The notes below the pieces were generated by a model. It had not been told where the DNA came from and did not search any database. It worked only from the letters and a program-made list of their open reading frames with translations. From assembly GCA_000002445.1 (NCBI GenBank), contig CP000066.1, forward strand, positions 512,001-576,000: 64,000 bases of DNA, in the 5' to 3' direction. Positions 13,009 to 50,639 of the stretch are shown in pieces; within the stretch, counting starts at the first letter, position 1; every line of letters begins with the position of its first letter. Both the position numbers and the translations under genes were made by a program. The DNA is from Trypanosoma brucei. Taxonomy: Eukaryota.

Positions 13009-15303
13009 CTATTTTTCACTGGGCGCTGAGGCCCGTCTTGAGTCCGACACATTGCTACTACTCCGGAGTCGTTTTACTGCTCCCCCACGGCTACTAACCA
13101 CGCTTTGATTCTTATCCTTCATTGAAAGCCGCCGTGTTTGGGTGTCTGGCAGTGTTGTAGATGTGTCATTACGCAGAGATGCAGAGGCAGAGGCAGAGGC
13201 TGCTGCACAAACGGCATTGGAAGACTGTGACGAGGTGGAAGGGCGGAGTGGGGGCATGTTACCAATCTGTAAAAAGGCTCCCAAAGAAGCGCCAGTAGCC
13301 GAAACCCTCAGTGCCTCATTTATTTGTTGCAGTGATCCAGCCACCTCATCGTTCATCTCAAGGTCGGTGAAAATGTCCTTACTGCTCTCAACCGCCGCAC
13401 GACAGGCATTTTGCAGAGCATGACGGAATGGCAACACATCAGCGGGTGTCGGTAACTTTGTAGTCATTGAAATACTATCTTCGTATAGACGTTGTTCGCA
13501 CTCGAGCTCATCATCTAAAATCATCTGTTCCCTCACATACGCTGACAGGGTCTCCTGTAGTTGTGATTTAAGTCGCTCCTGCACACCCTCTAAAGAAGCA
13601 CGACGGCGTTTCTGAAGTGAATGAACTGCGGCAACATGTTTCTGCGTCATTGCCACAATGTTTTGTCCGAGGGAAGCAAAGTTCTCGTTGATACGTACAA
13701 CGCAACGCGCCATGTCATCCTCGTACTGCCGTGTGGACACACCAAATGTGCTTCCCCTCTTCCTCCCCTCACTTCCCTCTTCTGCGTTGCCCTTCGATCC
13801 CTCGTCACGGCATTCATCGTCACCCTCCTCCACCTGTCCCATCAGCGTGTCGAGTCTCCATTGCTCAAGCCGCTGAAACACCGCCTCCGTACCACGTTTT
13901 GCGGTGTTGTGGGCGTCACGCACTGCATCCTGCACAACCAACTGGAGTGTGCCAACCTGGGAGTCAAACTTCAGAAGGGCCTCGTGGTACACCTGTTTAA
14001 AGCGGACCAACTCTTCCTCCTTCTCCTCTATCATCGCCTTCAGTACACTGGTTTGCGAATCAGTGATATGTTGGAGACCTTCATTTTCCCGCCGCTCCTT
14101 CAGCAACGTATCCACATTTGATTTTAGCTCAGTATATTCCTCCTCCAGTTGCTGGTACCGTTCGTGGTCCTCGCGAGAAATATAGTAACCGCCCCGCTCC
14201 GCTACGCGCTCCTGGAGGCGGTTGCGTAGCCGCTGGTTTTCAGCTTCGAAGGAACGGAGACGAATCATCAACTTCTCCCGTTCAGTGTTTGCCTGGTTTC
14301 GAATGGACCGGGCCTTCACTGCGTACATAAGAGTCGACTTGGTTTCTTCAATGTCCCGGCCGACGGAAGAAATGCATGCGATCATGAGAGTCCGCGCACT
14401 GCCACCGATGGAGTCCCGCAAGATCTCTGTTAACTTGGAGTCCCGGTACGGCACGTGATTTGGCCGTGTTGTGTCGTTAGAGTTTGAAAGCGCAAGAAAC
14501 ACATTTTTTAGCGCTAACAATGATTTGTTGATCTTTCCCGTTTCGCCCGCAGCCGCCCCACTAGCGTGAGATTTCTTTAAACTCTCACTACCCGCAAGAT
14601 CCACCATGAACAAGTGGGTTACATCCACACTGTTGGTGTACTCGTTAAACTCTTCGTAGTCGACTATTATAACGACGTGGGAGCGGCTGCTCCGCTCATT
14701 CATGAGAGTCGACGCAATGTGACGGCGGCTTAATCCCTTCTGAATTGCCGCAAATGCATCGGCGACCCGTGATAACGTCAACTTCTCGTTGGATACCGGA
14801 AACCCACCAACAAGCGTCACCTCTGTTTCTCCATCCTTACTGAGCATGTCAATCAGTTTCTCATTGTATATTTCTATCATGGAAAGTGTGAGTGCGCACT
14901 GCGCCCCTTCAACTGTCCTTTGCTGCACGTGCTCAAGCATGGAGCCGATCATACGGTGGGCAATACCACTCGATCCTCCAGCTCCACCTAACATAGTAAA
15001 CGTCTTCCCCGTCCCAGTCTGTCCGTACACCATTACAGTGCCATGTAATCCATCCTTCACGCTCTGTAGAATGGGCTCACATATGGCATAGACATCGTCC
15101 TGCGTAGCAGTGGGGGGAAATATATAGTCCGGGTCGTAACTTTTGTTGTCCAACATGACACGCCTTCCATTGACGAAGCTGAGGCCAGCCGCAGGGCGCT
15201 CACTCTCAAATAGTGGCCGACAGCGAACTGCCACCTTAATGTTGCTCATCTCTTTGCTCTCTTGCCTGTTTGACACACCACCCGCTGCTGTGCCTTCTGA
15301 CAA
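13009..15303 (-). CDS. Kinesin-like protein, N-terminal motor domain, coiled-coil stalk, Ser/Ala-rich tail
   Basis: P-loop GQTGTGKTFTM, switch I SSRSHVV, switch II VDLAGSE, neck HVPYRDSKLTEILRDS; heptad-rich region after residue 350. Confidence 0.9.
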   Translation of the reverse strand: MSEGTAAGGVSNRQESKEMSNIKVAVRCRPLFESERPAAGLSFVNGRRVMLDNKSYDPDYIFPPTATQDDVYAICEPILQSVKDGLHGTVMVYGQTGTGKTFTMLGGAGGSSGIAHRMIGSMLEHVQQRTVEGAQCALTLSMIEIYNEKLIDMLSKDGETEVTLVGGFPVSNEKLTLSRVADAFAAIQKGLSRRHIASTLMNERSSRSHVVIIVDYEEFNEYTNSVDVTHLFMVDLAGSESLKKSHASGAAAGETGKINKSLLALKNVFLALSNSNDTTRPNHVPYRDSKLTEILRDSIGGSARTLMIACISSVGRDIEETKSTLMYAVKARSIRNQANTEREKLMIRLRSFEAENQRLRNRLQERVAERGGYYISREDHERYQQLEEEYTELKSNVDTLLKERRENEGLQHITDSQTSVLKAMIEEKEEELVRFKQVYHEALLKFDSQVGTLQLVVQDAVRDAHNTAKRGTEAVFQRLEQWRLDTLMGQVEEGDDECRDEGSKGNAEEGSEGRKRGSTFGVSTRQYEDDMARCVVRINENFASLGQNIVAMTQKHVAAVHSLQKRRRASLEGVQERLKSQLQETLSAYVREQMILDDELECEQRLYEDSISMTTKLPTPADVLPFRHALQNACRAAVESSKDIFTDLEMNDEVAGSLQQINEALRVSATGASLGAFLQIGNMPPLRPSTSSQSSNAVCAAASASASASLRNDTSTTLPDTQTRRLSMKDKNQSVVSSRGGAVKRLRSSSNVSDSRRASAPSEK

Positions 15304-17309: not shown

Positions 17310-20300
17310 TCATGACTGCATCGCCTTCACTGCAGCAGACACCAAACCCTGCAGTGCCTGAGCCTCCGTGCACAAACGCTTGCATTCCTCCCCACGCTGC
17401 TGGTGTATCCCCTCCTCAAGGGACTTACAAATTGAATCTACTTTAGGTTTGATACGCTGCTCCATTATTGTTTGCAATGCACGGCGGTCCTTTTTCTGCA
17501 TTTCCACAGACCTCTTGAGAAAGCTGATCTCTGCGTCCTTTCCACGGACGTCTTCGCCCTTTGCATCATTCAACCTGGTGAGCAACTCCGATATCTCATT
17601 ATCCCTCTCCTGCAGCGTGCGGCGCCACTCCTCTTCACGTTTCGAGTGAGCACTACGCAAGTCGAGCAACTGCGCCTCCAACGACTGAACTGCAGTGGCT
17701 GAAGCAAATCTCTCTTCTGGTGAAGAGGCAGGGTTCAACTCAACACCCTTGAAACCAGTGTCAGGATTTGAAGAGGCGCCGACGTGAGTTTCCCCTTTAC
17801 ATGCATCCGCAGCGCACTCCACTGCCCTCTCCACGCTACGCTTCGCCTCGCCTGCCACGTGATCCTGAAGCAACTTCAGCGCTACACAGACTTCGCTAAG
17901 CTCCTCCCGTTGCAGTGCAGACGTGCAGTATTCTAAGGCTTTCTGAGATTCAACACGCATGACGTCTATCTCGCCAGACAAATGCAAAAGTTTCTCCTCT
18001 TTCTCCGCTAATTGTCGCCGCAACATCTCTATTGAGCCCTCATAAGCTTTGCGTACCGTCTCTTGTTGTCCGTCGAAGTACCGCCGGGTGTACGAAATGG
18101 CCTCCAGCGCCTCTGGCAACTGCTGAGCCCTTGACGCATCCATTAACCTACCAAGGGTGCTGTAATCTTTTCTTAGTGCAAGCAACTGCAATTCCTTGTC
18201 CTTCACGGCGTGCGAAAGTTTCCCGAAGTAACTGCTCACCTGCTGGTGGGCAATTCTTTCAACAGCTTCCTGTACAACTTTCGCCAACTGGTCCTTCAGA
18301 CCACCGGTCACATACGTCTCTGCTGCTTCCCTCCGCGACTCCGTGTCCAGTTGTGGTGCCACAACCTCCTGAATTTTAGTGTGATTGAATGTCAGTAGCT
18401 CCAATATCTTCTCATCTGGTGGTAGCAACACCGAGGGATTGGTGTCCGATCGGTACCACATATCGGTACCACTTCCATCACGACGCGGCTTCGGCACACG
18501 AAGACGTCGCAGGCAGTTTTCCGCCTCCTCCCTTGAAAGAGCAGTGGAGGATTTGCCAACTCCTTCACCAGGGGAAACCAGCGGCGGCACCGAGTCATTC
18601 GCACTTTCCGTTAACCCTTCAGAGCTTTCACGAGTGCTTAACTCTTCCTTCAAATTCCGAATAATTTCATCTCTTTCACTGAGCTTCGACGTAAGGTCCA
18701 CAACAATATCCCTGTGTTTGACGAGCAACTCGTTATACCGGCTCAGCATCGCCTCCTCTTGAAGCACCTGCCATTGGTGGTGAATCTCCTCAAGACCAAG
18801 CATATATTCCTCTGGGTCGACGTGCTCTTCACAGCCGCCATTGCCAGCTTCATTCCCTCTGCTATCACGTAGAATCGCTTCTAGTTCCTCCAGTCGCCGT
18901 TGCAGCTGCATGCGAACAGCTTGCTCGTGTTGATGAGCACACAGAGACCTTTGCAGTGCTTCCACAACCTCCTCACGCTCCTCCTCCGCACGGCGGACAC
19001 TCTGCTGCAACTCTGACAGGAGCCCAACATCTAACCCCTGCTGTGACTGCAGTTGCATCGCATCTTGCTGCCCCGGTAGAGACCGCTGCCTCTCGTGCTG
19101 GGTGTCTTCATTAATAACGGCGGTATTTCGTATGTTTTTGGCGCGATTGGCAAACAAAAGTGTTGAGAGAGTTTCCGCATGGGACTCCAGAGCAGGTGAA
19201 ATACACACAATGAGAGTGGTCTTACAGTTACCGCCAAGGGAGTCCCGCAGCACACTCGTGAGCACAGAATTTCTGAAGGGAACATGGGAACTACGCGATG
19301 CACCACCGTCCTTGTTGTCTTTTCCACAACTCTTCCGTTGAGCTAGTGCCGAAATGACGTTGCCGAGTTCGTGTAAGGATTTGTTAATACACCTCGCCTC
19401 CTCCAGTCGTTGCCCGCTTACGCCTGATTGTCGTACCTTCTCGCTCCCGGCAAGGTCCACAATGTTCAACTTTCCCACGCGGTGAGAAGATACCGAACCA
19501 GTTACCGGGTCCTTTTTTACAGTTTCCACCGTAAGGATGAAAATGGCGTGTGAGCGAGAGGACAATTCGCTCATGCGGGTTGCTTCCGTGGCACGTCTTG
19601 AGGTACCGCGCTCCATAAGGTAATACACGTCCCGTGGACTACACACATTCCATTCCGAGAGGCCATCAACATGAACACCGCTCCGCGTTGTGTGCCGCAC
19701 CACCAACGACCGTGGTGCCTCCTCCCCCGGTGGCTTTAATAAATCAGATATAACCTCATTGTATATTTGCATATACGACGCTCGGATGGTGTAATCCACA
19801 TTGCCACACCGACTATCGTCCATAATACTGAAGATTTCCTCTACAGCACGGGCAATGATGCCATGCTGCTCCTCTCCAGCAAACCCCTCCATTGTGTATG
19901 TTTTTCCCGCACCCGTCTGCCCATACGCCAACAAGGTAGCGTTATAACCCTCCACGACGGATAGGACGGCACTACGGGCACTCCGCTCATACACATCCCG
20001 TTGCAGATCATATCTGTCGTGCACGTAATCAAACGTAAAGGTTTGTGTCGCGTAAACTTCTGCAAAGCAACCACTAGCTTTGTTGTCATCGCTATTGTCA
20101 CTCAGATCAACTGGTTCGCACAATGTAATGGACGATCGATCCTTGGAAACACGCACAACATCAGTGTACCGGCTGTTTTCCTTGAGCTCACGCGGTAGCG
20201 GAGGGCGTACACGTATCACAACCGTTATGTTTGATTCACTATCGCCATTTGGAGTGAATGGAGTTGCACTGACACGGGTAGATTTTGAAGTCTCAGACCC

Positions 20301-20528
20301 GAAGCCCCAGCTCACAGATTGGGATGCGAATTGGCCGTCAGCACCACTACGCTGTATGGTTTTGTCATTAGTACTACACCCAGAGCAGTGATGTGTCATC
20401 ATCGCCGGCACAAGTGGCGGAGATGTGTCGTTAAAAACTACTCGCGCACGACGCCGCCCCTCCTCCCGTTGAGGCATCCCCGGTATTGATTGTCCACTTG
20501 AACCTGTAAAACACGCGGAAGTGTTCAT
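17310..20528 (-). CDS. Kinesin-like protein (1072 aa), motor domain residues about 95-480, long C-terminal coiled coil
   Basis: VVIRVRPPLPRE, GQTGAGKTYTMEG, SSRSHAIFIL, LNIVDLAGSEKV, HVPFRNSVLTSVLRDSLGG; extensive heptad/E-L-rich C-terminus. Confidence 0.9.
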   Translation of the reverse strand: MNTSACFTGSSGQSIPGMPQREEGRRRARVVFNDTSPPLVPAMMTHHCSGCSTNDKTIQRSGADGQFASQSVSWGFGSETSKSTRVSATPFTPNGDSESNITVVIRVRPPLPRELKENSRYTDVVRVSKDRSSITLCEPVDLSDNSDDNKASGCFAEVYATQTFTFDYVHDRYDLQRDVYERSARSAVLSVVEGYNATLLAYGQTGAGKTYTMEGFAGEEQHGIIARAVEEIFSIMDDSRCGNVDYTIRASYMQIYNEVISDLLKPPGEEAPRSLVVRHTTRSGVHVDGLSEWNVCSPRDVYYLMERGTSRRATEATRMSELSSRSHAIFILTVETVKKDPVTGSVSSHRVGKLNIVDLAGSEKVRQSGVSGQRLEEARCINKSLHELGNVISALAQRKSCGKDNKDGGASRSSHVPFRNSVLTSVLRDSLGGNCKTTLIVCISPALESHAETLSTLLFANRAKNIRNTAVINEDTQHERQRSLPGQQDAMQLQSQQGLDVGLLSELQQSVRRAEEEREEVVEALQRSLCAHQHEQAVRMQLQRRLEELEAILRDSRGNEAGNGGCEEHVDPEEYMLGLEEIHHQWQVLQEEAMLSRYNELLVKHRDIVVDLTSKLSERDEIIRNLKEELSTRESSEGLTESANDSVPPLVSPGEGVGKSSTALSREEAENCLRRLRVPKPRRDGSGTDMWYRSDTNPSVLLPPDEKILELLTFNHTKIQEVVAPQLDTESRREAAETYVTGGLKDQLAKVVQEAVERIAHQQVSSYFGKLSHAVKDKELQLLALRKDYSTLGRLMDASRAQQLPEALEAISYTRRYFDGQQETVRKAYEGSIEMLRRQLAEKEEKLLHLSGEIDVMRVESQKALEYCTSALQREELSEVCVALKLLQDHVAGEAKRSVERAVECAADACKGETHVGASSNPDTGFKGVELNPASSPEERFASATAVQSLEAQLLDLRSAHSKREEEWRRTLQERDNEISELLTRLNDAKGEDVRGKDAEISFLKRSVEMQKKDRRALQTIMEQRIKPKVDSICKSLEEGIHQQRGEECKRLCTEAQALQGLVSAAVKAMQS

Positions 20529-22326
20529 TTGTTACCTACAGTCCCACTCAGCTCCCCTACCCCTCCTACACCAACACCAATGTCGCTGATAGAACAATGA
20601 GGCTCCAACAAGTACGATTAACGCTTCAAAAATGCACACAAGATAGCGCGTTAGAAGCGGTGTCGATATTAGAAAAAAAGGAGTCAGGTAAAAGACGTAT
20701 TGTTTCCCACTAACGTAACCAACTGATGGGGGAATAAGTGCCCCTCGCCCAACTGGAAGTGGCAAAATGAAGAGGTAAGAAGAAAAAAACACAAAACGTT
20801 GGCACCAAAAGTGGGTAAATGAACAGCAGTAAATACACAAGTGAGCTGGCGGTAACCACACATTTCCGATTTGAGAAGTAATGGAGCAAAGAAGAAGAAA
20901 GTCAAAAGAAAAAAAAATCCCGTACGTTTTTTCCCCTGCTACCAACAACTTCGCTCACTTATATTGTATTTCCTTTCTTTCTTCGCTTTGTTACTTTATT
21001 GATATTGATTAAAAGGGGGAAAACTTGTGCATCTATTCATCTATGTTATTTCTTTTCTTTACTCTCCTCCCTTGACTATCACGCTAACACACTCACGAGT
21101 CTTTCTTGTCTTTGTTTGGCTAATTTTTTTCCCCCTCTCTCGTGTCGCTACTTCTGCCGCTGATGCGCTTGTAACTCAACTCTCCATCAATGATTGTATC
21201 TTCTAATTGTAATAAACACACCGCTTGGAAGTTTCTATTATCTACGTCCGTCACCCTTCCCTCCCAGCGGTTCTGATATATGTAAATAAATAAATAAACT
21301 CATTTACTCATCCACTCATTCATTCATTCATTTCATTCCACCTTTCAACCTCATCCCATTCCCCCCCCTTCAGTTCCTTTTCTCTTCACGCTCGAGCTTT
21401 ACACACGGCGTAAAAGTCCTCACGAAAATACAAGGGGGAAAAAGAGACAGAAATCGAAAAGTAAAATAAAGAGTGAAAACTGAATGCGTAAAAACAGGAT
21501 GATGCAAAATAACACACCACACACAAAAAAAACAGAAGAAAAAAAGAGCGAAGATACGTACAGGTGCGAGAAGTTCCTGTTGCATACCTCGAGTAGTGTC
21601 TAAGTGCTCTATCTAAATGCGCGCATAGACACAGAGGAGAAACTCGTAAAGGCACTTACGCGGGGAGTAGGTGTGAACAAAAATAAATAAGTAAAAAGAC
21701 AAAATGTAATGACAATAAAAAGGAGGGAAAATAGAAACCAAGGAAAAGGGATAGAAAATGGAAGGAAATGAAATGAAGAAACAAAAAAAACGGAAGCGAC
21801 TTATGAGTCACTCCATGTGCTCTATTGACGCAACACGAAGCAACGGAACCACCACATGTTCTCTTTTTTTTTTCATCCCTTTCCCTCTCGACAAACAAAT
21901 ATTTTCCCTTTGCGCTCGCTTCAGCCCCCACTCCGGCTGCCGCAGTTCACGTCCCACACGTAATGAAGGAAAAGTAAAGCGGACAGCACAAGCTGAAACG
22001 CAGGCACAGTGGCCTCTATCAAATAACATCCAACGCTTAAACTCCTTCGTATGCTTTTTTTTTTCCTTTGTATCCTTTATTTACCCACTCCCTCTCTTTC
22101 TTTGATCTATGCAACCACACTTCCTGCATACAGTAGGTGGGACACAATGATAGAAAACAAACCACAACCAATAAATAAATAAATAAATGATGTATCCAAC
22201 GAGCTGTGATGCTTATCTAGTAGAATACGCTCATGGTATACGGCGGATTGCGAATGCGTTGGGTGAAAAGAAAAAAAAAGCAGACCCCCGCCTCCAATAA
22301 CTGACATGACACACGAGGCTGCTCAT

Positions 22327-25300
22327 CTACCGCTTCCCAGCCTTCGCCTTCTCAGTGGGTTTCCTACCGGGTTTCTTCTTGGAAGCAGCCGGCTCTGCAG
22401 GCTGCTTCTTTGCTGTGGGTTTTGCTACAGGTTTCTTGGCTTTTGTAGTCTTCGCCGTCTGTTTATTTGCGCCCTTTGCTTTCTCTGTCGCTGCTGCCGT
22501 TGCCTTAGCATTCTTTGCGGCAGCCACCTGCTTACCCGCTCCTTTTGGCTTCTCAGCCGCTGTGACAGCCGCCTGCTTACCAGCGGTTTTTGCCTTCTCA
22601 GTCGCTGTGACAGCCGCCTTACTATTCTTTGCAGCAACTGTCTTCTTATTTGCCGCCTTTCCTTTGGCTGTTGCCGCCCCTCTCGTCCCTGCTGCCGGAT
22701 CCTTGCTCTTTCCCCGCTTTCCAGTGTCTTTGGCTTTACCCTTCACAACGGCAGTGGCAGCAGCAGCAGCTCTTTTCTTTCTGGTTGCCCGCATTGGCTC
22801 AAGTTCCTTCTCAGGGGGTGAGTCTAACCACTCCTTCAAGTCATTTCGAATTTTTCCAGCTCGATTCGCCTTCTTCCCACCCACCTCTGCACGAGCTCCC
22901 CTCGTCTTCTTCGGAGGCTCTTCCGCCTCCTCATCGGTGTCCTCACTTCCTTCCTCCTCCTCTTCACCATCATCATCCTCTTGCTCTTCCTCCTTTCGGG
23001 GTGAGCGCTCGATAAACTTCTTGGGACTTTGGAAACCTATATTGGTTCCACTCAAATCCTTTGCAAATGGCGGGTTGTCATCATCATTCTGCGGTGCGCC
23101 CGGCAGAAGCTGCGTCGACTTCAAAAGCACTTTAGTGATCACCGGCCGAGCACGAGACGAAGACGTTTGATCAGAGTACAGCATTCCTCCTACTACAGGT
23201 GTATTACTTCTCTGCAACCCAGTGTTTGCAGGGCGAAGCACTTGCATTGCAGATGCGCCGAAGGAGGTTGCACCAGGAATGAGACCCGGTTGATGCTCTC
23301 GTTGCTGACGGTTGTACTTCTGTTGTTGACCGGAGTGCTCATGGTGGAACAGCTGCTGTTGTGGTGCCTGTTGCTGCTGCTGGAAATAATGCTGCTGCTC
23401 TTGTGGAAAACGTTGGTGTTGCTGCTGCTGCCACTGTGGTGGTTGTTGTTGCTGCTGCTGCTGGTGGTGGTATTGTAGTTGTTGGTGCTGCGGTCGCTGT
23501 GTCTGCTGGGGTTGATGAAATGGTATATGCCGCTGCTGTTGTTGCTGTTGCTGTTGTTGTTGTTGCTGCTGTTGCTGTTCGTATAGGAACTGCTGCGGCT
23601 GCCGGAACTGCTGGGACTGATGTGGTTGGTTAGCCTGCTGGTTGTACTGTTGCTGCTGGTTATGGAACTGATTGTAGTAATATGGGTCCCGTTGTTGTTG
23701 GTCAGTGGATAAACCAAAGATATTGCTACTACTGGGCGCACCGAATGCCTGCGTCGGCTGCGGTTTCATTGACGGCCAGGTGCCGCCTAATCCTTCCATG
23801 TTTGATTGGGGTACCACAGGGCTTTCTTCGGGGGCACCCCACATCGAAGCTGAAGAAAGCCATGATGTATTTGACGGTGGTGAAGCACCCCAGTTGCCGA
23901 GTTCATACTTTGGATATTCCTGCTTGGAATATTGACCTGTGCCCCCACTACTTCTGTTGTCCTTAAGAGCGGCAGATCGCACATCGCTTAAAGGAATCTT
24001 TGTGCGGCGCGGTTGCCCCTCCTCGTGGCATTTTTGTTCCAGTTGCTGACTGTAACTTCTCTCGGGAACAGCAGCCGGACGATGCTTCTCGGGCGGTGGT
24101 GACGCAAACATGGTGGTGGGAGGATTATTATGGTTCAAAAGTCCCATGAATGGCGAAGCAGTACGGGTTTCTGGCGACCGCAAGGTCACAGGTGACGAGG
24201 TTGAGGCAGAGGCGGAGGCGGAGGTACCAAAATGCTGCGACCGCTGCGGATCTTCAGCGGAACTCAGAGGATTTTTGAACATGGACCACAGCGTCGAGTT
24301 GAATCCCGTTGGGTTCCCCTCCGCAGCAGCAGGTTTGTCCGTTCGATACCTGTCCGGTTCATTTTGCTGCTGATGTTGCTGTTGTTGCTGCTGGTGGACG
24401 TTGCTGCCCCGAGCACGGTTAGTGCTCCCTGCGGCGTCAGCACTGCTTTCATTGGTGTTTGAGGCAAGGCCAGTTTGGGGGGCGGCCCCTGAGCCACTGG
24501 CACCACCAATTTCAGTTGAACTGGTTAACGTATGGCCCGCATTCATCGCAAATGGTGGAGCAACTACCAGAGCGTCAGAGCCAGCGGAACTTTTACTTTC
24601 TGTCTTACCGGGCATGCCTATTGTCGCATTCGAAAAGGGGTCCATTGACAACGACTCATTCAAATCTTGTGAGACCGTCAGCTCGTTTACAGGTGGTGCC
24701 TCCCCTAATGCCTTCGTCATTTTCAACGTGAACCGACCAACCCGCTTCTGCTCTGCCTCCTGCGGGAGAGCTATGTTTCTCACAGCCTCTCGGAGCTGGG
24801 GCTCATACGCATCAGCGTTAGACCTAACAGATTTAACCATTGGACTAGATTGAGTCAGTGGCGTCTGCAAGGCACCTTGCTGAGCCTGCGCAAGAAGGAC
24901 CGTGATTCTCGCGGTTGTTTCATCCGGTTGTGTGAGTCGCCCATACGGACCGTTCACGAGCTCGGTAAGTATCTGCTCCAGCAACGGCTGTTGGGTGACG
25001 CTTCCATAGACGGTGCACAGCGAACAAAGCAAATTTTCCATTTCCTTGGCATTTATATTGCACAACCGCTCATGAAACTTTTCTCTAAATCGCGCAAGCC
25101 ATTCGGGTCCCGGGTGCATTTTTGCTAGTGGTCGCACCGCTTCAAGATAGCGCAGTACAGTGCCCATCCGAATTCGTTCCGCTCCAAGAAGCTCCTGACC
25201 GCCACTCACCACAAAGTGGCATATGGCATCTCCCGACCCTCCTCCAAATACGCCCGTCATGAGCTCAACCAAAGAAACAAATTGCTCCGGTGACACCGAT

Positions 25301-27045
25301 ACTGTTTTGGCAGCTTCAAGCGCCTTTGCTGTGTCTCGAGCGTGCGGAATCAGATTGGCAGCCAGTGGCAGACAGTAAAGGGTATCGCTTGTCCACTCCG
25401 CCTCAGCAAATCGAGCGGAGAGGAAAGCAACACAAGCTGAGTGTAGCTCGGGCCGCCCGGAGGCCTGAAGCATACGAATCTCATCAGGAGAGAAGCGCTC
25501 TTGGGCCGCTTGTAATCGGGCAACCAGCTCCGCCACAAGTGCCCCATCAAATTTCGTGCCCTGTACCAAAGACAGGGCGTCAACGAGCTGTCGAGCTGAT
25601 ACATCACTCAAATTAACCTGTGCATGCAATGCCTCATCGTCTGGAAAGGCCAGGGCAAGCAACAGTTTTGTGTGGCTGCTGCACTCGGGTTGTAACAATC
25701 GACTTGCCACTGCCTTAGCCTCCGGCATCCAGGAGGGTGCCATAGGAGCGAATGTTGCACAAATGTGGCTTATCTCTGACAACGAAAACTCACCGAGCAC
25801 CGTTTCTATGCGCTCCCCAAGACGCACCGCCAATTCTTGCGACAGTAGACTTGAGCGGCGAAGAATGCCAGCTGCCATTGCCAATTGCTGGGGCTCAAAT
25901 CGGCCAACGTGCCGCCCTACGTACGCCTGGTATGCGAGAAACACGTTTCTGTAACGAAGTCGGCCGCCCATTTCATATGCGAAGGCAATGGTTGTCATGT
26001 CATCGCAGTGACTCCAGTGCAACTTATCATTACAGTCAAAGAAGCTCATCACACGTGGTTCATATTCCTCTAAAAGAGTGCTAAGCCGCCCCCCAAGCTC
26101 ACACACATCGTGCTGTGTTAAGCCGTTCCTTCCCGGTTGCAAAGATCCAACCATCTTCGCTACAGACCCGATGATGGAAGCAACATCACGTCCATTAGCC
26201 GTCGTAGAGTACATAAGACCTGCACGGGCAAGGCGCTGCTGCAGCTGGGGTGGGAAAGGAAGCAGCTGATGGTGCCGAAGGCATGAGTTCATCAGCGTGG
26301 AAAAATCGTAGCTGTGGAATTCGCCTGAATGATCCAAAAGGGCGACAAGGAAATGACTAGCCTCAGCGACCTTACCAGTGCGTACTAACCAACTGTAGAC
26401 CCTCAGCAGCGGGGGCTGCATCCGCGGCATATCGGTTGTTGGTGTATTCTGTAGGCGTGTGACGGCAACCTGTGCGAGCGTCTCACTTAAAGTACTGGGC
26501 GCGTGCTTGCCGCCACGCTGCAAGACCTTTGCAGCGCACTCGATCAAATTCCAAAAGTCATGATAGTCAGTATTGCTACTACCACCCTCCTGAGAAATTT
26601 CATTTAGTACCCTGTCTACAGTGGCAAACGTCCGCTCCAAATATTGGTCGCCGCGTTGAGTCAGCGCCACAGCTGCTAGAAGACGGGTGACACCGTCGTG
26701 GTTTTTATCATCTAACGTACGCACAAGTTTGTTTGTAATGAGTGCCTGCAATGAGGTGTCTGGTTCTATCTCGAAGAATGAGAGGAGCTGCGCTAGAGCC
26801 ACCGCATTGTTTCCCTGTTCGATCCACACATTTATCTCATTTTGAGGGACTTCAGTCTCCAAAAAACGCTCCGCCTCGCGTCTAGCGAAATCGTACTGCC
26901 CTCGGCCTCGATACTTGCGTTTCAGAGCAGCGGCCCTGTGGGCGAACTTAGTCATGGAACTGCCGCCACTGCTTCCCCCAAAGCCGCTCCCTCCGGAAAC
27001 GAAAGGGGCGCTGGGCCACGCAAGTAATACGGCGACACGCCGCAT
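22327..27045 (-). CDS. Large hypothetical protein (1572 aa): mitochondrial-like presequence, alpha-helical N-domain, Q/H-rich core, Lys/Ala-rich histone-H1-like C-terminal tail
   Basis: N-term MRRVAVLLAWPSAPFV; centre QQQQQQQQQQQQQQRH...; C-term AKTAGKQAAVTAAEKPKGAGKQVAAAKNAKATAAATEKAKGANKQTAKTTKAKKPVAKPTAKK; single uninterrupted ORF. Confidence 0.7.
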   Translation of the reverse strand: MRRVAVLLAWPSAPFVSGGSGFGGSSGGSSMTKFAHRAAALKRKYRGRGQYDFARREAERFLETEVPQNEINVWIEQGNNAVALAQLLSFFEIEPDTSLQALITNKLVRTLDDKNHDGVTRLLAAVALTQRGDQYLERTFATVDRVLNEISQEGGSSNTDYHDFWNLIECAAKVLQRGGKHAPSTLSETLAQVAVTRLQNTPTTDMPRMQPPLLRVYSWLVRTGKVAEASHFLVALLDHSGEFHSYDFSTLMNSCLRHHQLLPFPPQLQQRLARAGLMYSTTANGRDVASIIGSVAKMVGSLQPGRNGLTQHDVCELGGRLSTLLEEYEPRVMSFFDCNDKLHWSHCDDMTTIAFAYEMGGRLRYRNVFLAYQAYVGRHVGRFEPQQLAMAAGILRRSSLLSQELAVRLGERIETVLGEFSLSEISHICATFAPMAPSWMPEAKAVASRLLQPECSSHTKLLLALAFPDDEALHAQVNLSDVSARQLVDALSLVQGTKFDGALVAELVARLQAAQERFSPDEIRMLQASGRPELHSACVAFLSARFAEAEWTSDTLYCLPLAANLIPHARDTAKALEAAKTVSVSPEQFVSLVELMTGVFGGGSGDAICHFVVSGGQELLGAERIRMGTVLRYLEAVRPLAKMHPGPEWLARFREKFHERLCNINAKEMENLLCSLCTVYGSVTQQPLLEQILTELVNGPYGRLTQPDETTARITVLLAQAQQGALQTPLTQSSPMVKSVRSNADAYEPQLREAVRNIALPQEAEQKRVGRFTLKMTKALGEAPPVNELTVSQDLNESLSMDPFSNATIGMPGKTESKSSAGSDALVVAPPFAMNAGHTLTSSTEIGGASGSGAAPQTGLASNTNESSADAAGSTNRARGSNVHQQQQQQHQQQNEPDRYRTDKPAAAEGNPTGFNSTLWSMFKNPLSSAEDPQRSQHFGTSASASASTSSPVTLRSPETRTASPFMGLLNHNNPPTTMFASPPPEKHRPAAVPERSYSQQLEQKCHEEGQPRRTKIPLSDVRSAALKDNRSSGGTGQYSKQEYPKYELGNWGASPPSNTSWLSSASMWGAPEESPVVPQSNMEGLGGTWPSMKPQPTQAFGAPSSSNIFGLSTDQQQRDPYYYNQFHNQQQQYNQQANQPHQSQQFRQPQQFLYEQQQQQQQQQQQQQQQRHIPFHQPQQTQRPQHQQLQYHHQQQQQQQPPQWQQQQHQRFPQEQQHYFQQQQQAPQQQLFHHEHSGQQQKYNRQQREHQPGLIPGATSFGASAMQVLRPANTGLQRSNTPVVGGMLYSDQTSSSRARPVITKVLLKSTQLLPGAPQNDDDNPPFAKDLSGTNIGFQSPKKFIERSPRKEEEQEDDDGEEEEEGSEDTDEEAEEPPKKTRGARAEVGGKKANRAGKIRNDLKEWLDSPPEKELEPMRATRKKRAAAAATAVVKGKAKDTGKRGKSKDPAAGTRGAATAKGKAANKKTVAAKNSKAAVTATEKAKTAGKQAAVTAAEKPKGAGKQVAAAKNAKATAAATEKAKGANKQTAKTTKAKKPVAKPTAKKQPAEPAASKKKPGRKPTEKAKAGKR
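22380..22760 (-). repeat. Imperfect about 60-nt tandem repeats encoding Lys/Ala/Thr-rich (AKxAxKQAAVTA) tail
   Basis: cttctcagccgctgtgacagccgcctgcttacc / ccttctcagtcgctgtgacagccgccttact recur; protein shows periodic AGKQAAVTAAEKPKGAGKQVAAAKN. Confidence 0.7.
23340..23690 (-). repeat. Coding CAG/CAA (plus-strand CTG/TTG) microsatellite encoding poly-Gln/His-Gln tract inside the 1572-aa protein
   Basis: Plus strand shows (TTG/CTG)n: ttgttgctgctgctgctggtggtgg ... ttgttgttgttgctgctgttgctg; translation QQQQQQQQQQQQQQRH. Confidence 0.9.
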
Positions 27046-29019: not shown

Positions 29020-30327
29020 CTACTCTGGGTCTTTACTCGACCGGGAGGACAAAAGCCGCGGCATAGCTAAGTCAACAAAATGCCCATCGGACGCAAAAAA
29101 TCCCCCTTGAATATCTTTCCCACGGTCCGCAACACCATTAGAATTTTCCCGTCGCTTCTTGCTTTTAGTTACTAGTGGTGACATGGGTTGAGATAACCCC
29201 TCCAGCTCCGTGACATAGGAGAAAAGGTCCGCCATGTCCATCATACCAAACTTTGGATCTGCTGTTCCCGATTGTCTCTCAAGCGAGCCCGGGCCCGACC
29301 CCGACCTGCTGTTGCTACATGCGTTTGCACCTGAGAGAGAAAGACTCCCTTTTGCGCGTTTCATCTTATTTGGGCTTGGTATATCAACGAGCCATCGATG
29401 CGAAAGAAGCTCTCTTGCACTCGGACGAAGGGCCGGATCCCGTACAAAACAAAGATCTAAAAAGTCTTGCAACAGGGGAGACCCCTCGCAGTTGACTGGA
29501 AGGCGGGGTGATCCTGAGTTATTTGATACTATCGCAAATAGCACCGCAGCAGGATTTTTCATATTCCCCCCAAACGGCTTCCTTCCACTTATCATCTCGT
29601 ATACGGTAACACCTAAACTCCACACATCCGCTGCTGTTGTGTAGCTACTTTCCCCCTTATTATCATTGTTGCTCCTATAATCAAAGTCACCGCCACCGGC
29701 ATCGGGGGAGTCATCGGTGTCATTTGGTACATTCCTATCGCTATCGACAACTTCCGGAGCCATATACCATGGTGTTCCCACCGTTGTGTGCATCCCGACA
29801 GTATCATCGATGAGTTTACTCACACCAAAATCTGTTAACTTGCAGCGACCATCCGCGGTGATAAGAACATTGGCGGGTTTGATGTCCCTATGACAAATAC
29901 GGGCAGTATCATGCAGATACGCGAGCCCCTCTAGCAAGTCACGAGCATACGACCGCACTACATTCTCACGTAAGGATCCCTGCCGTCTAATGATCCCGTC
30001 CAATGACCCGCCGTTCACGTACTCCATTATTATCTCTACACCCACTGCGCTACGGCGTGCGCCATAATACGTAACGAGGTTTGGGTGTTGCACCCGTTCC
30101 ATCAGATGAATCTCCTGCAAAATCGCTCGCATGTCGTCGGAGATAACAGGAGGTTCCTGAGGAAATGCATCTCCCCCATCCCCACCTTCCGGTGCGACAA
30201 CACCACCGTCGTACAGAGGAATTTCCTTCACGGCAACGAAACAACCTTTTTCCTCATCGTAACCCTCGTAAACGACACCTCTCGCCCCAACGCCTAACTT
30301 GCGATTCGTCCTACGAATGTTCTCCAT
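29020..30327 (-). CDS. Serine/threonine protein kinase (435 aa)
   Basis: Gly-loop GVGARGVVYEG, VAVKEI (subdomain II Lys), HRDIKPANVL, DFGVS, GTPWYMAPE, DVWSLGVTVYEM; Gly/Asp-rich insert and Ser-rich C-terminal extension. Confidence 0.9.
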   Translation of the reverse strand: MENIRRTNRKLGVGARGVVYEGYDEEKGCFVAVKEIPLYDGGVVAPEGGDGGDAFPQEPPVISDDMRAILQEIHLMERVQHPNLVTYYGARRSAVGVEIIMEYVNGGSLDGIIRRQGSLRENVVRSYARDLLEGLAYLHDTARICHRDIKPANVLITADGRCKLTDFGVSKLIDDTVGMHTTVGTPWYMAPEVVDSDRNVPNDTDDSPDAGGGDFDYRSNNDNKGESSYTTAADVWSLGVTVYEMISGRKPFGGNMKNPAAVLFAIVSNNSGSPRLPVNCEGSPLLQDFLDLCFVRDPALRPSARELLSHRWLVDIPSPNKMKRAKGSLSLSGANACSNSRSGSGPGSLERQSGTADPKFGMMDMADLFSYVTELEGLSQPMSPLVTKSKKRRENSNGVADRGKDIQGGFFASDGHFVDLAMPRLLSSRSSKDPE

Positions 30328-31222: not shown

Positions 31223-34200
31223 TTAGTCGAGCACATGCCGTGCACGGAGTACAACATGCAACAAGTATGACTCTACCGTCTTATCCGCCGAGTTGTTTAT
31301 AAATATCCACATTGGCCAGCGCCCTTCTAACTGGCCTTCCGGTAGTCTCAACATGCTCATGTGCAGCGTGATAACTTGAGTATCTTGCGGGGCAAGCACG
31401 AACGTCTTTGGTTGGACATGAAGTTGGTACTTGTAGTTGTGATGAACAGTAAATATATCCTCACTTAAGCAGACATTCACAAAATGCAGCCGTCGGAGTA
31501 TTGGCGCGTTGGCTTCCTCAACACTCAACTCGATTGTTTGTGTATATGTCGGAGTCGGATACACCGTGGGAACTGTAACCAACGTTTTGGCAAGATGGTT
31601 GCTAGTCAGCGAATGCAGTAATAAGTGCTGTGTTCCCACCTCATGCGGTCGAAGGTGCATCATATACAATCCCTCTCGCTGCTCCACGCGCATGCGCGGG
31701 TCACTGCAATAAATCGCCTCAACACCCTCAGACGGAAGTGCCACAGCAGTGGTTTGACCGAACATCAGCTCACGTGTGGTCACCGTCTGTGAGGCAAATA
31801 TGCTAAGCTCCCATGTTTCTAATGCTTTACTCAACTTTTCATCCTCAAAAAGAGTGAGATACTCCACTCGTTGTTCATTACAATCCCGTGGAATCGTAGT
31901 GTGGATAGTTACTTCCTCCCACACAGTAACCGATGACTGAGTAATGGGGTCTAACACTACATTCGGCTCCACTGTCGTCTCATCGGAGGCAATAGAAACA
32001 TGGAGGCATGCATCACGCATAGTAGAAAGCAGCTTGTCACGTTCGGATGAAACTGAAAAGGCAGAGGAAGAAAAGAACCGTGAGAATATTTTCTTCGTCA
32101 CCCTTGACCCACTGGGGCCATATACCTCATAACGACGGTCGACACATGGCGGTCCCACATTGGCGTGCACGTCGATAATTCGTACCGCCTCATGAGTGGG
32201 AGTGTATACAAACGCACGAAGGTTAACCTGTTCGCCCTCCACATCAACGCTGGCCGAGCGAGAGTCCATTGCGTAAGTGTTTCTCTGCTGATTGAGACGA
32301 ACGACAAAAAGAATGTCCGCATGTTCGCGCGGCCCCAAGTGGACTGTTGGGCACGACAACACATCAAGCGCATCAGTGGCTGCTGGGTCCACTTCCACAG
32401 TGAATTGTAATCCCTGAGCAAATGGGTTCTGAAACGTTACGGATACCTGCTCTGGTCGGAAAGAGGCAACAGAAATGTAATGGTGCACGGTGAGGCGCTC
32501 CATTAGAGCCTCGCCTATCTTCTTTGACTTAAGTTCGTCTCGCTGTTTCTCCAGATAACGTAGTTTAAACTCACAATCTGCATCTTGCGGTCGAGCCCCT
32601 AAGTGAACCTTTGAAGATTGAATTCCATTGGCATAGAGCTGCTTAATATACTGCGCACGACGCCAGTGCATATCATTGTCCGGCACACTAGAGGCGGTAG
32701 AAAAATCCACCCCCGCTGTCGGTCCATGTTGCTTCAAACCCGTCGTAGACCCCACGAGGGGTTGAGCCCCCGGGTACGGCACACCCGTTACTCCGCCCGT
32801 TTCCGGACCCGAATGCACAGCTTGCTGCTCACTTGCGGCGTCATTAGCGGTGGTCATCAAGCCCTGCCGAGTAGCCTCCTGTTGCGGATGGTGCTTTGCC
32901 TCCATAAGGTTTGTATGCGGTAACTTCCTCGCCACAACGACACGTGACACCTTCAGTGGCTCCACAACACGATTCTCACTCTGCTTCGGGAGCGGTTGAC
33001 CCGTGCAAATGCAAAAAAGGGTCACATGCAACGAACCAGCATCTCGCACTACGGGCAAAACTTTAGATGGTACCTGAATTTCAGTGAAGCTGAGATCACG
33101 GTACACAACCAAGTCCTTTGGAATGCGAGCGCTCTCAGCATTGTACGGACGGCGAAACTCTGAGAGGCGTACATTCGCACTGCAAACGTAAAACATGGTT
33201 AGTGCGTTATAGATGTGAACATAGAGGATTGCATTGTCGCGTTGCTTATGCTTGTGCAAAAAGGGATTGTTAGCGACCTCAAAGGGTTCATACCATATCA
33301 TACCGCCCCGCTGCTTTCCTTCATACAATTTAAATGTGCTCACGTGCAATGATTTATCGAGAGCTACAGCCCGAATGGGTCCTATGGTTTGGAAAGGTAG
33401 CGATCCAAAGGAAAACATGAAGCAAATATCCTTTGGTATAGGAATGGACTCATCTACAGTAAGTCCTTCGAAGCGAATACCGTACATCGACCCGGCGTTT
33501 GTACAACTAGCTGATGTGTGCTCATCGATGGGGACGGCGTGCAGCGGATGAAGAATGGGTTGCAAACCCTCCTCTAACTTACGGCGTGTCTCCCATGAAA
33601 TAGAAACGGCAGTTGGTGTGAAGTTAAGTACGGTGATGGAGTCGGTTGCGTCATCCAGCTGCTTACCGGACTCGCTGACTCGTTTCGCCTCAACAGCCCG
33701 TTGGCGGTGCTGTCGAGAAGCCTGCTCCTGCATCTGCCGCAGCCGGCGGGTTTCTTCCATGATGTTGCAGAGCATCTTAAACACGTCAGTGGAACGCCCC
33801 TCGAGAACGGCCCCCACCGCGCCGCCATCATCGGCGTAGTCTAACAAAGGGAATGATGCCGCACTGTGCCTTTTATCGGCAGCGGCAACTGGCGCCAACG
33901 CATCTGCCGTTGAAAGAATCTCCATCTGCCGCCTACGCATATCAAATGGAGTAGGGATCAATTTGGCACCTTCAGTAATGGAGAGTAAAGTTGTTTTCCC
34001 CTCCCCCTCAGCTGCACTCACACCGTCCCCCTCATCTCCCAGCCTACCGCGCCTGCGTCCCAGTCGCCCTTCGCCCCTAACACCCGGCCGTGATACGTCG
34101 GCAACAGTATCAACAACGCCGGTATCATAATATCCCACCACTAGTGTCACAACAACGGGAAGCTTCCCGTACGGTGATGTGGGTTCCAACATGAGCATGC

Positions 34201-35281
34201 GTTGATCTCGACACGAGAAAGGTCCCTGAAGTGTGGGAAGGTTCTCTATGCGGACATCACAATCTTTCATAGGCATCACACAGAGGGGAAAAACACAGAA
34301 CCCTAAGACGCGGAAATCGTCATCTATTTCCCTTTTTCGCCGTATTGCCAACACCAGCGAGGTGGCGGAATGGACCGGTAGGCCGTCAATCTCCAGCGGG
34401 GTGGCGGAGTGCAGCAGCTGCTCCTTTAATTCTATTTGCTCAGATTTCACAGGCAACGACGACAACGATAACGACAATGAATCAGAAAATTCTGAAACGT
34501 TTGATGGTTTGGACCCATCCCTAAACACTAGTGAAACCTCAGCCCCCTGCCCCAACTGCCTATAACCGTTGTGGGCCACGACGGCAATGCGCCACTCTGC
34601 TGAGCTGTCGCGCCATTCATCATCGTCCGCGGTCGGTACTATGTAAATATTCTGCAACACGCATCGGAAAATGTCGGTCGACGCCTGCGGGCAGTCGTCC
34701 ACGAAGCTACGCGGTACCATAACACCGGTAGGGACCAGCCGCGTCAACAGTTGGCGTGTGGTATCGTCCTCAATAATCACCGCACTAAACGTAATTGTGT
34801 GCTCTTCCCCCTCAGATGCAGGCCACGCCTTGCGGCCTAAAGTTAAAACGTGCGCGCTGCCACGGTAAAGCTTAACAGAGGTGCTGGAGGCCATCGCCGA
34901 CAGCTCAACATAACCCCAAAACAGTGCCTGCCGCCGCAGAACCGCGTCCGGAAGCGGAGCCGGGATCAGAATCTCCACAGCTAGAACCACATCGTTTGGC
35001 CGACCCTGAAAAAGAACCGGCTCCCGCTCATCTCCTCGAGGAACATCATACGTCGCACCCACAAAATGGGAAGTGGCAACGTCAAACAGCGTCATTCGAA
35101 GCGCCACAACATCTTGGAATGGTGGTTCGGAGGGGAGCGGGTCCCAATTCACCTGAAGCGTGAGTACTCCATCAGTGGCACCCTCTGCCGCTGTATTGCA
35201 TTCCCATGTATCATATCGTACAGCGCTGGAGAGCAGCGCCCGCGCAGTTTGCTCCGCCGACCGGCTTCGTCTCATTCCCAT
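31223..35281 (-). CDS. Large hypothetical protein (1352 aa)
   Basis: Uninterrupted 4 kb minus-strand ORF with non-repetitive composition; no catalytic motif recognised; several segments predicted beta-rich. Confidence 0.6.
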   Translation of the reverse strand: MGMRRSRSAEQTARALLSSAVRYDTWECNTAAEGATDGVLTLQVNWDPLPSEPPFQDVVALRMTLFDVATSHFVGATYDVPRGDEREPVLFQGRPNDVVLAVEILIPAPLPDAVLRRQALFWGYVELSAMASSTSVKLYRGSAHVLTLGRKAWPASEGEEHTITFSAVIIEDDTTRQLLTRLVPTGVMVPRSFVDDCPQASTDIFRCVLQNIYIVPTADDDEWRDSSAEWRIAVVAHNGYRQLGQGAEVSLVFRDGSKPSNVSEFSDSLSLSLSSLPVKSEQIELKEQLLHSATPLEIDGLPVHSATSLVLAIRRKREIDDDFRVLGFCVFPLCVMPMKDCDVRIENLPTLQGPFSCRDQRMLMLEPTSPYGKLPVVVTLVVGYYDTGVVDTVADVSRPGVRGEGRLGRRRGRLGDEGDGVSAAEGEGKTTLLSITEGAKLIPTPFDMRRRQMEILSTADALAPVAAADKRHSAASFPLLDYADDGGAVGAVLEGRSTDVFKMLCNIMEETRRLRQMQEQASRQHRQRAVEAKRVSESGKQLDDATDSITVLNFTPTAVSISWETRRKLEEGLQPILHPLHAVPIDEHTSASCTNAGSMYGIRFEGLTVDESIPIPKDICFMFSFGSLPFQTIGPIRAVALDKSLHVSTFKLYEGKQRGGMIWYEPFEVANNPFLHKHKQRDNAILYVHIYNALTMFYVCSANVRLSEFRRPYNAESARIPKDLVVYRDLSFTEIQVPSKVLPVVRDAGSLHVTLFCICTGQPLPKQSENRVVEPLKVSRVVVARKLPHTNLMEAKHHPQQEATRQGLMTTANDAASEQQAVHSGPETGGVTGVPYPGAQPLVGSTTGLKQHGPTAGVDFSTASSVPDNDMHWRRAQYIKQLYANGIQSSKVHLGARPQDADCEFKLRYLEKQRDELKSKKIGEALMERLTVHHYISVASFRPEQVSVTFQNPFAQGLQFTVEVDPAATDALDVLSCPTVHLGPREHADILFVVRLNQQRNTYAMDSRSASVDVEGEQVNLRAFVYTPTHEAVRIIDVHANVGPPCVDRRYEVYGPSGSRVTKKIFSRFFSSSAFSVSSERDKLLSTMRDACLHVSIASDETTVEPNVVLDPITQSSVTVWEEVTIHTTIPRDCNEQRVEYLTLFEDEKLSKALETWELSIFASQTVTTRELMFGQTTAVALPSEGVEAIYCSDPRMRVEQREGLYMMHLRPHEVGTQHLLLHSLTSNHLAKTLVTVPTVYPTPTYTQTIELSVEEANAPILRRLHFVNVCLSEDIFTVHHNYKYQLHVQPKTFVLAPQDTQVITLHMSMLRLPEGQLEGRWPMWIFINNSADKTVESYLLHVVLRARHVLD

Positions 35282-41951: not shown

Positions 41952-42189
41952 GAGTCTGCGCGTTGTTTGCGGTACTCAGTTCCTCCTCGTTTCCTATTTT
42001 TTTTTTAAAAAAAAGATACTCCTTCGTTTATCTGATTTCCCCGTTTTGCTTCGTTTTCGCGTTACTACTGATTTCTTTTTGGTTTTAAAATGCTCCGATT
42101 GTTAATTTGTGACAATTAATTTACCGTGTTTTTTTGTTTTAACTTTTTTGTTGGTCTTTCGTACCCGGACTCTCTCACGTTACCGCTCA

Positions 42190-42933: not shown

Positions 42934-42943
42934 CCCCCCCCCC
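42934..42943. repeat. C10 homopolymer
   Basis: gggtacccccccccccgcctcc. Confidence 0.9.
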
Positions 42944-43519: not shown

Positions 43520-43538
43520 CATATATATATATATATAT
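43520..43538. repeat. (AT)9 microsatellite
   Basis: acatatatatatatatatattaatatatttta. Confidence 0.9.
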
Positions 43539-50629: not shown

Positions 50630-50639
50630 GCGTGAAAAC

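Follow-up and report, generated by a model that had tools for sequence, protein, structure and literature searches.

The stretch of Trypanosoma brucei DNA analyzed here covers 64,000 nucleotides (assembly GCA_000002445.1, contig CP000066.1, positions 512,001 to 576,000 of the forward strand) and is referred to as the window, with positions counted from its first letter. Its minus strand contains a very long open reading frame (ORF) at 22327..27045, and the question raised by this locus is which protein the ORF encodes and what the different parts of this protein may do. A preliminary description, made from the letters alone, proposed a mitochondrial-like presequence, a helical N-terminal domain (N-domain), a long polyQ core and a histone H1-like Lys/Ala tail, and suggested a candidate organizer of kinetoplast DNA (kDNA) or RNA. 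The ORF is MiRF172 (minicircle replication factor 172, Tb927.3.2050) of T. brucei chromosome 3. This protein is not a new discovery, as it was named, localized and characterized in 2018 and is covered in reviews on kDNA replication. The preliminary description did not recognize it as a known protein, and the suggestion of a kDNA organizer was essentially right for a protein with an established kDNA localization and role in kDNA maintenance (PMC5963845).

Identity of the reading frame and published function

The ORF listing of the window gives an intact ATG-to-TAG frame of 4719 nt and 1572 aa, exactly where it had been placed, and all four proposed elements are present in its product. In the study of Amodeo, Jakob & Ochsenreiter (2018, J Cell Sci; PMC5963845), Tb927.3.2050 is described as a very basic 172-kDa protein with an ORF ending at bp 4719. 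A mitochondrial targeting sequence is predicted for this protein, S999 is given as phosphorylated, and the C-terminal part has a polyQ stretch and a region rich in Ala and Lys; the protein has also been detected in mitochondrial proteomes. The window protein has a calculated mass of 172.4 kDa and a pI of 9.2 (Biopython), compared to a pI of 9.5 in PMC5963845, and its residue 999 is a serine. In addition, both gene-specific northern-probe primers of PMC5963845 match the window once each with 0 mismatches, and the placement of the reverse primer, over the stop codon and 10 nt of the 3' untranslated region (UTR), agrees with the published text. Since length, mass, Ser999, polyQ stretch, Ala/Lys-rich C-terminus, primer sites and gene order all match, the ORF is assigned to MiRF172. 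An exact-sequence look-up of the full window protein in the protein collection returned no identical entry, and a Pfam search with the whole protein (E<=1) matched no family. Two coordinates in PMC5963845 are inconsistent: the forward primer maps to ORF nt 4230 and the RNA interference (RNAi)/probe fragment is stated to begin at ORF bp 4409, and for the PTP-tagging fragment ORF positions 4404-4895 are quoted, past the end of the 4719-bp ORF. These inconsistencies leave the identity of the protein unaffected.

Tagged MiRF172 is observed as two foci positioned 180 degrees apart at the kDNA disc, the antipodal sites, and stimulated emission depletion (STED) microscopy resolves two curved bodies that each span about 25% of the circumference and face the kinetoflagellar zone (PMC5963845). 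The protein remains insoluble after DNase treatment and is retained with isolated flagella, and its correct placement depends on the kDNA and on the tripartite attachment complex (TAC) (PMC5963845). Upon RNAi, about 20% of the cells have no kDNA and 30% have small kDNA, the disc shrinks in diameter from 544 to 368 nm and keeps its ultrastructure, the levels of minicircles and maxicircles drop to about 60%, and nicked/gapped free minicircles increase significantly as the covalently closed form decreases (PMC5963845). In gamma-L262P cells, depletion results in kDNA loss with no additional growth defect (PMC5963845), indicating that the function of MiRF172 seems to be limited to kDNA maintenance. 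Shrinkage of the kDNA together with the build-up of gapped free minicircles points to the re-attachment step, and PMC5963845 proposes that MiRF172 aids the re-attachment of replicated minicircles, possibly by helping topoisomerase II to tell replicated from unreplicated circles. A 2022 review describes the precise function as unclear, and a 2026 paper describes MiRF172 as only 'possibly' needed for re-attachment. The published experiments establish MiRF172 as a mitochondrial antipodal-site protein that is required for kDNA maintenance, with a defect at or near minicircle re-attachment.

Predicted architecture and a probable ancestral core

Orthologues of MiRF172 were collected in two steps. 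In the first step, a homology search was limited to the 8000 candidates that had most words in common with the query, a list of which much was probably filled by low-complexity words, and detected homologues only in kinetoplastids (T. vivax, T. theileri, T. melophagium, T. cruzi, T. rangeli and L. major) with 43-63% identity. The same kind of search with the N-domain as the only query returned one protein. Each of the 14 orthologues that were retrieved first is encoded by a single ORF (1301-2157 aa) and has a basic tail, and every one of the 13 with a complete N-terminus starts with a basic stretch free of Asp/Glu; the remaining one (P0001) is truncated N-terminally. A split frame, or orthologues devoid of the tail or presequence, which the preliminary description had named as findings that would speak against it, were thus not encountered in this set. 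An exhaustive representative search gave about 20 full-length orthologues and, in addition, a tier of proteins of 740-960 aa with 25-29% identity, one of which is from Trypanoplasma borreli. Two of the clear orthologues have other names in public records, namely 'Monooxygenase' for P0004 from T. theileri and 'chaperonin containing t-complex protein' for P0006 from T. rangeli. These names are probably annotation errors, because the sequences support neither.

The N-terminus of the window protein, MRRVAVLLAWPSAPFV, contains 2 Arg and no Asp/Glu within the first 20 residues, as is also the case in nearly all full-length orthologues. The N-termini are conserved in type, with MRR/MRH..LLxWP in Trypanosoma, MLR.. 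in Leishmaniinae and MRSSR../MLRK.. in the short forms. The proposal of a mitochondrial-like presequence agrees with this composition and with the targeting sequence predicted in PMC5963845, and the N-terminus of MiRF172 is a putative mitochondrial targeting signal.

Residues 31 to about 765 are Leu/Ala-rich and near-neutral. This region had been described as helical-repeat-like (residues of about 30-780), and the AlphaFold2 model of residues 31-810, obtained with a 15-sequence alignment as input, bears this out: an all-alpha solenoid of about 40 helices is predicted (pLDDT 85, pTM 0.76), with the domain end near residue 765 and disorder after that. The model is composed of tandem two-helix units, as in FASTK-like RAP, HPR and OPR proteins, with a mean two-helix period of about 42 aa versus the 37-aa HPR and 38-aa OPR repeats (PMC12691811). 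In the structure comparison, the highest score was obtained for RESC6 (22.8, with 381/452 residues aligned), which has the same three-dimensional fold, followed by RESC8 (21.0), the mitoribosomal RAP-domain proteins of T. gondii (14.9-19.0), mS107, mL116, mL123 and mL118 of Chlamydomonas/Polytomella (14.5-18.2) and RESC4, RESC3 and RESC10 (12.0-14.4); generic ARM/HEAT proteins reached about 10-11.7. Foldseek also placed a RESC6 chain on top, the remainder of its matches being generic solenoids with low TM-scores. An independent AlphaFold model of a 28%-identical orthologue has the same fold class on top, so that both models are nearest to FASTK-like RAP/HPR proteins, OPR proteins and RESC subunits, and the earlier guess of a FASTK, PPR or HEAT-type domain went in the right direction. 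According to a recent review, RESC3/4/6/8/9/10/11 share right-handed helical-repeat structures, RESC8 binds RNA and the 3' end of the guide RNA is enclosed by a crevice between RESC5 and RESC6 (PMC12936278).

The best-conserved part of the solenoid is a core of about a hundred residues (Table 1), which contains invariant G, L, R and H residues shared by long and short forms. When the helical domain of the short homologue P0031 was compared with the sequences in the PDB, RESC6 was the only significant match (E 2.5e-4, next match 0.16), and the matching stretch of P0031 is the equivalent of this core. P0031 aligns with several offset RESC6 stretches, which is the behavior of a repeat unit. P0022 and P0031 carry only a 'faint' precomputed PF26188 (RESC6) flag. 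No RAP domain was found by Pfam in the window protein, and the models show only disorder past the solenoid. Three 37-aa HPR-like units had been seen by eye in the core; this claim was withdrawn after leave-one-unit-out hidden Markov models (HMMs) did not cross-detect the units, and a pooled-unit HMM matched its own training units only. The models suggest that the N-domain works like the RESC/HPR/OPR organellar solenoids and may descend from them, with no membership of a single family established. PMC5963845 reports no overall similarity of MiRF172 to other proteins, and among the papers searched, none joined MiRF172 with a structural analysis. The fold class is therefore a modest addition, derived from structure predictions and remote similarity.

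The region from residue 766 to about 1350 is rich in Ser, Pro, Gly, Thr and Gln, has a pI of about 6-8 and is poorly conserved. It is missing from the short deep-branching orthologues, in which the solenoid joins the basic tail directly. In the alignment of 14 orthologues, Trypanosoma and Leishmaniinae share five short conserved motifs, which lie in this region and, for the last of them, at the start of the basic tail (Table 1). An acidic run, which was not mentioned in the preliminary description, divides the disordered region from the basic tail, and its coding DNA is a CTTCCT-type repeat on the plus strand (Tandem Repeats Finder, TRF).

The extreme Q-rich tract proposed as the core of the protein is present, although not in the center, as it lies at 70-79% of the length, in the C-terminal third. 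It is also not a pure CAG/CAA microsatellite: the codons are interspersed (CAG:CAA = 39:26), the longest run starts as CAG CAA CAG CAG CAA CAA CAA CAA CAG, and TRF detects only short imperfect 3-nt arrays, such as 23537-23579. The length of the tract, predicted in the preliminary description to be polymorphic between strains, was seen to differ clearly between species. The Trypanosoma proteins are rich in Gln (16-58 per 100 aa, with longest runs of 4-15), and the short forms and the other trypanosomatid orthologues except P0012 are poor in it. This is broadly in keeping with PMC5963845, according to which polyQ is confined to Trypanosoma. The full-length orthologue P0012, from EukProt, has an N-terminus that groups with the non-Trypanosoma homologues and a Q-rich middle with 34 Gln per 100 aa and runs up to Q8. 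Because of this protein, Q-richness may not be strictly restricted to the genus, contrary to PMC5963845.

An Ala/Lys-rich basic tail had also been proposed, with a length of about 250 aa and periodic repeats of about 20 aa. The tail is there, and comprises about 200 aa. The periodicity could not be found: a 15-aa unit present 2.2 times is the sole tandem repeat that TRF detects in the tail, and autocorrelation gave no 20-aa period, with only lag 38 significant and lag 33 under the multiple-testing bar. The basic tail is found in nearly all homologues, including the short forms of about 850 aa, and is predicted to be disordered in P0031. In profile searches of the PDB with the tail retained, the only matches were to the polyQ of TBP and huntingtin or to the Lys-rich tails of Nop56/58, CBF5 and similar proteins, and these were rejected as compositional.

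The short homologues, which came from the exhaustive search, have an Arg-rich N-terminus and a helical domain that is directly followed by a Lys/Ala tail ending in KKK or KRK, without the long middle. One of them, P0031, is encoded on a 16.6-kb contig between a kinase that is 42% identical to that of the window and a kinesin that is 50% identical, indicating that it is a positional orthologue of MiRF172. Because these deep-branching kinetoplastid orthologues of about 850 aa hold only presequence, solenoid and tail, the three modules are taken from the sequence comparison as the conserved ancestral core, and the disordered Q-rich middle of about 600 aa as a probable later insertion in trypanosomatids. 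No published description of this short architecture was found, and it is again a modest addition that derives from structure prediction and remote similarity. Two short homologues have acidic C-termini, namely P0023, a Trypanoplasma borrelli transcript in EukProt with repeated ETPKKVE units that looks truncated, and P0025, which ends in ...SESDEEA. Their gene models may be incomplete, or the two may be genuine exceptions to the rule of a basic tail.

Proposed role in minicircle re-attachment and competing explanations

The explanation that best accounts for the combined data, and that is very probably correct, is that the ORF encodes MiRF172, a nucleus-encoded mitochondrial protein of the minicircle re-attachment step, which would act as a modular tether or scaffold. 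This mode of action and the division of labor between the modules are derived from the protein anatomy and are more tentative, with a somewhat less than even chance that the roles of the modules are right. In this proposal, the short basic presequence would import MiRF172 into the mitochondrion, and the mildly acidic solenoid of about 735 aa would be a docking platform for antipodal-site or TAC-proximal proteins, which is consistent with the DNase-resistant insolubility and the TAC-dependent placement. The solenoid could possibly also hold a single-stranded nucleic-acid end, as the RESC5/RESC6 crevice does. The Lys/Ala tail of about 200 aa would bind DNA electrostatically and non-specifically, like H1-type tails, and would keep gapped free minicircles or the network edge near the machinery, probably topoisomerase II. 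The five conserved short motifs of the linker are probable partner-binding sites, and the Q-rich segment of Trypanosoma may promote self-association into the curved antipodal-site body.

Several observations weigh against this picture. The DNA binding of the tail, the partner binding of the solenoid and the self-association of the Q-rich segment are all inferred. Since MiRF172 remains insoluble after DNase, DNA binding is not its anchor, and an interaction with topoisomerase II is a published speculation only (PMC5963845). With respect to the fold, the two models do not agree on RESC6 as the closest structure, and support at the sequence level is thin. The only five matches that a tail-free family profile gave below E = 10 were to a PPR protein, three RAP proteins and RESC4; these point in the same direction as the models, but no match was significant and RESC6 was not recovered. 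The N-domain of the window protein had no match among the PDB sequences, and Pfam gave no meaningful family for nine short homologues or, at E<=10, for the N-domain and 19 family members, with the PF26188 threshold not reached. An internal 37-aa periodicity was undetectable with the leave-one-unit-out HMMs of three units. Furthermore, nearly all orthologues have a mildly acidic solenoid (pI 5.4-6.7), which argues against an array-type nucleic-acid reading and favors a role as a scaffold or a local groove.

Four rival explanations, discussed after a more far-reaching version of this reading, fit the published phenotypes and the anatomy less well. The far-reaching version, in which the N-domain is a true, highly diverged RESC/HPR relative, its RESC6-like groove recognizes a single-stranded feature of newly replicated minicircles (the remaining gap or a primer remnant) and, together with the H1-like tail, licenses topoisomerase II-dependent re-attachment, is unlikely. 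If it were true, MiRF172 would be the long-sought factor that distinguishes replicated from unreplicated minicircles, kDNA replication would have recruited a mitochondrial RNA-handling module before trypanosomatids split from bodonid-type kinetoplastids, and the bodonid-type orthologues of about 850 aa would be the minimal functional form. Somewhat less likely still is that the main task of MiRF172 is to connect the kDNA segregation machinery (TAC) structurally with the kDNA disc, with the replication phenotype being secondary. The protein was found in a screen for TAC components, is retained with flagella, is insoluble after DNase, lies between TAC102 and the disc and, without kDNA, moves beside the old TAC (PMC5963845). 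However, TAC102 is placed correctly without MiRF172, and depletion results in network shrinkage and gapped free minicircles rather than missegregation, with the position and ultrastructure of the disc unchanged (PMC5963845). The fact that the closest structures of the N-domain are all organellar RNA-binding helical-repeat proteins, together with the weak sequence similarity to RESC6, could also indicate a RESC/HPR-type RNA handler that acts on RNA primers or minicircle transcripts at the network edge, with kDNA loss being indirect. This is improbable to a slightly greater degree, as depletion in gamma-L262P cells leads to kDNA loss without an additional growth defect and gapped free minicircles increase early after depletion (PMC5963845), the solenoid has a mildly acidic pI and no RAP domain, and MiRF172 is not in the listed RESC subunits (PMC12936278).

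The preliminary description also compared the tail with those of kinetoplast-associated proteins (KAPs), which raises the question whether MiRF172 is a giant histone H1-like KAP that condenses or packs kDNA. The H1-like composition was confirmed, and the Lys/Ala-rich tail and short basic N-terminal signal do resemble the description of KAPs (PMC8080567). Membership of the KAP family did not hold up: KAPs are of low molecular weight (PMC8080567) compared to 172 kDa, only the final ~200 aa are Lys/Ala-rich next to an N-domain with a pI of about 6, and the protein is at the antipodal sites and not over the whole disc, the striated ultrastructure of which is unaltered after depletion (PMC5963845). 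A packaging role is thus very improbable, and the published ultrastructure already speaks largely against it. That the long ORF is an artefact of assembly or annotation, for example a fusion of two genes via low-complexity sequence, has a negligible probability and is already refuted. The low-complexity Q-rich and Lys/Ala-rich DNA does yield spurious antisense ORFs on the plus strand (22306-22821 and 22355-23170), but single ORFs with the same architecture are present in at least 20 kinetoplastid homologues, and C-terminal endogenous tagging shows the protein at the kDNA (PMC5963845).

The present analysis shows that a kDNA factor can be correctly flagged from raw sequence alone. As a discovery it has little weight, and it leaves specialists two leads, namely a fold class for the N-domain and a naturally occurring minimal form of about 850 aa. 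The predicted fold class ties a kDNA replication factor structurally to the RESC/HPR/OPR solenoids that handle organellar nucleic acids, and the short version would define solenoid and basic tail as the conserved core, with the Q-rich disordered middle as a lineage-specific add-on.

Neighboring genes and comparison with known systems

MiRF172 is located between a protein kinase gene and two kinesin genes (Table 1). Gene order is identical around the L. major orthologue (FR796421.1, L001) and on a bodonid-type metagenomic contig (L002). Nearly all ORFs of at least 200 aa in the window are on the minus strand, as expected for one trypanosomatid polycistronic unit.

Table 1. Positions of MiRF172, its modules and motifs, the published primer sites and the flanking genes in the window.
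Feature	Residues	Position	Strand	Basis or remark
MiRF172 / Tb927.3.2050 ORF	1572 aa + stop	22327..27045	-	published length and exact primer matches
Start ATG		27043-27045	-	
Presequence region, MRRVAVLLAWPSAPFV then Gly/Ser linker; putative mitochondrial targeting signal	1-30	26956..27045	-	composition and conservation
Conserved all-alpha solenoid, RESC/HPR/OPR-like fold (predicted)	31-765	24751..26955	-	
Best-conserved solenoid core, DDMTTIAFAYEMGG...GILRRS...EISHICATF	348-458	25672..26004	-	highest column conservation
Low-complexity, gap-rich middle region	766-1351	22993..24750	-	column identity 0.23-0.39; pLDDT <50 from ~residue 771
DPF motif	802-804	24634..24642	-	invariant in 14 trypanosomatid orthologues
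S-Y-Y-x-K-F-F motif	964-970			degenerate in the T. brucei protein
Ser999, published phosphosite	999	24049..24051	-	PMC5963845
QPRRT motif	1011-1015	24001..24015	-	P-R-R invariant, T nearly so, in 14 orthologues
Gln/His-rich region, 43% Q	~1100-1240	23326..23748	-	composition, Q runs
Q15 run, longest Q run	1157-1171	23533-23577	-	
Motif pair GNxxFVDP ... RPVITK (T. brucei: GGMLYSDQ...RPVITK)	1286-1305	23131..23190	-	alignment islands
Acidic run, EEEQEDDDGEEEEEGSEDTDEEAEE	1352-1376	22918..22992	-	Asp+Glu fraction 0.5 in sliding window
Lys/Ala-rich basic tail (~200 aa)	1377-1572	22330..22917	-	~26% Ala, 23% Lys, pI 10.7
LxEWLxxP motif (LKEWLDSP), start of basic tail	1403-1410	22816..22839	-	L, W, L, P invariant in 14 orthologues
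Tandem repeat in tail, 45-nt (15-aa) unit x2.2, AAVTATEKAKTAGKQ / AAVTAAEKPKGAGKQ		22521..22619	-	TRF: 87% matches, score 149
Stop TAG		22327-22329	-	
Forward probe primer site		22797..22816	-	unique exact match
Reverse probe primer site		22317..22335	+	unique exact match; last 9 nt of ORF + 10 nt 3'UTR
Ser/Thr protein kinase, upstream of MiRF172		29020-30327	-	Pkinase, E 4e-62
Kinesins x2, downstream of MiRF172		17310-20528 and 13009-15303	-	E 2e-102 and 6e-78

Further genes of this unit, all on the minus strand, encode an M24 aminopeptidase-P-like peptidase (38052-39899), a large protein that carries a pseudouridine synthase domain at its C-terminus (48389-50875), a SNF2-family ATPase with a PHD finger (51494-54400) and an EF-G/EF-2-like GTPase (58057-60729). 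The ORF at 31223-35281 (-) encodes 1352 aa without a Pfam match; its syntenic counterpart in L. major (1336 aa) has a weak Ig_NPHP4_4th flag, a hint that the protein may be nephrocystin-4-like and belong to the ciliary transition zone. The lowest G+C in the window is found at 42001-44000 (0.394, versus 0.45-0.54 elsewhere), a segment that overlaps a plus-strand ORF (42357-42977) within the otherwise minus-strand unit. The two antisense ORFs over the tail-coding region, of 171 and 271 aa, would have low-complexity products rich in Cys, Leu, Phe, Ser and Ala, and most likely arise from the biased Lys/Ala/Glu codon composition of the coding strand rather than being genes.

[quoted passage not shown] It is about 300 residues longer than RESC6 and is extended by a long disordered region and a basic tail, and it has no Pfam RESC6 match. 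The published role of MiRF172 is in DNA replication and not in RNA editing, and the protein is absent from the RESC subunits listed in PMC12936278. FASTK-like RAP/HPR and OPR proteins, known from apicomplexan and chlorophyte mitoribosomes, share the predicted solenoid type. MiRF172 differs from these in having no RAP domain and no detectable 37/38-aa periodicity, in a solenoid that is acidic and not basic, and in a published substrate context of DNA instead of rRNA/mRNA. The likeness to KAP1-4, compared by composition, consists of a Lys/Ala-rich, highly basic and presumably disordered DNA-binding sequence together with a short basic import signal. In KAPs this signal is a cleavable nine-residue presequence, and in MiRF172 the N-terminus is basic and free of Asp/Glu. 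KAPs are small, basic throughout and present over the whole disc (PMC8080567), whereas the basic segment of MiRF172 is an appendix of about 200 aa, which is in its composition also like the C-terminal domain of histone H1.

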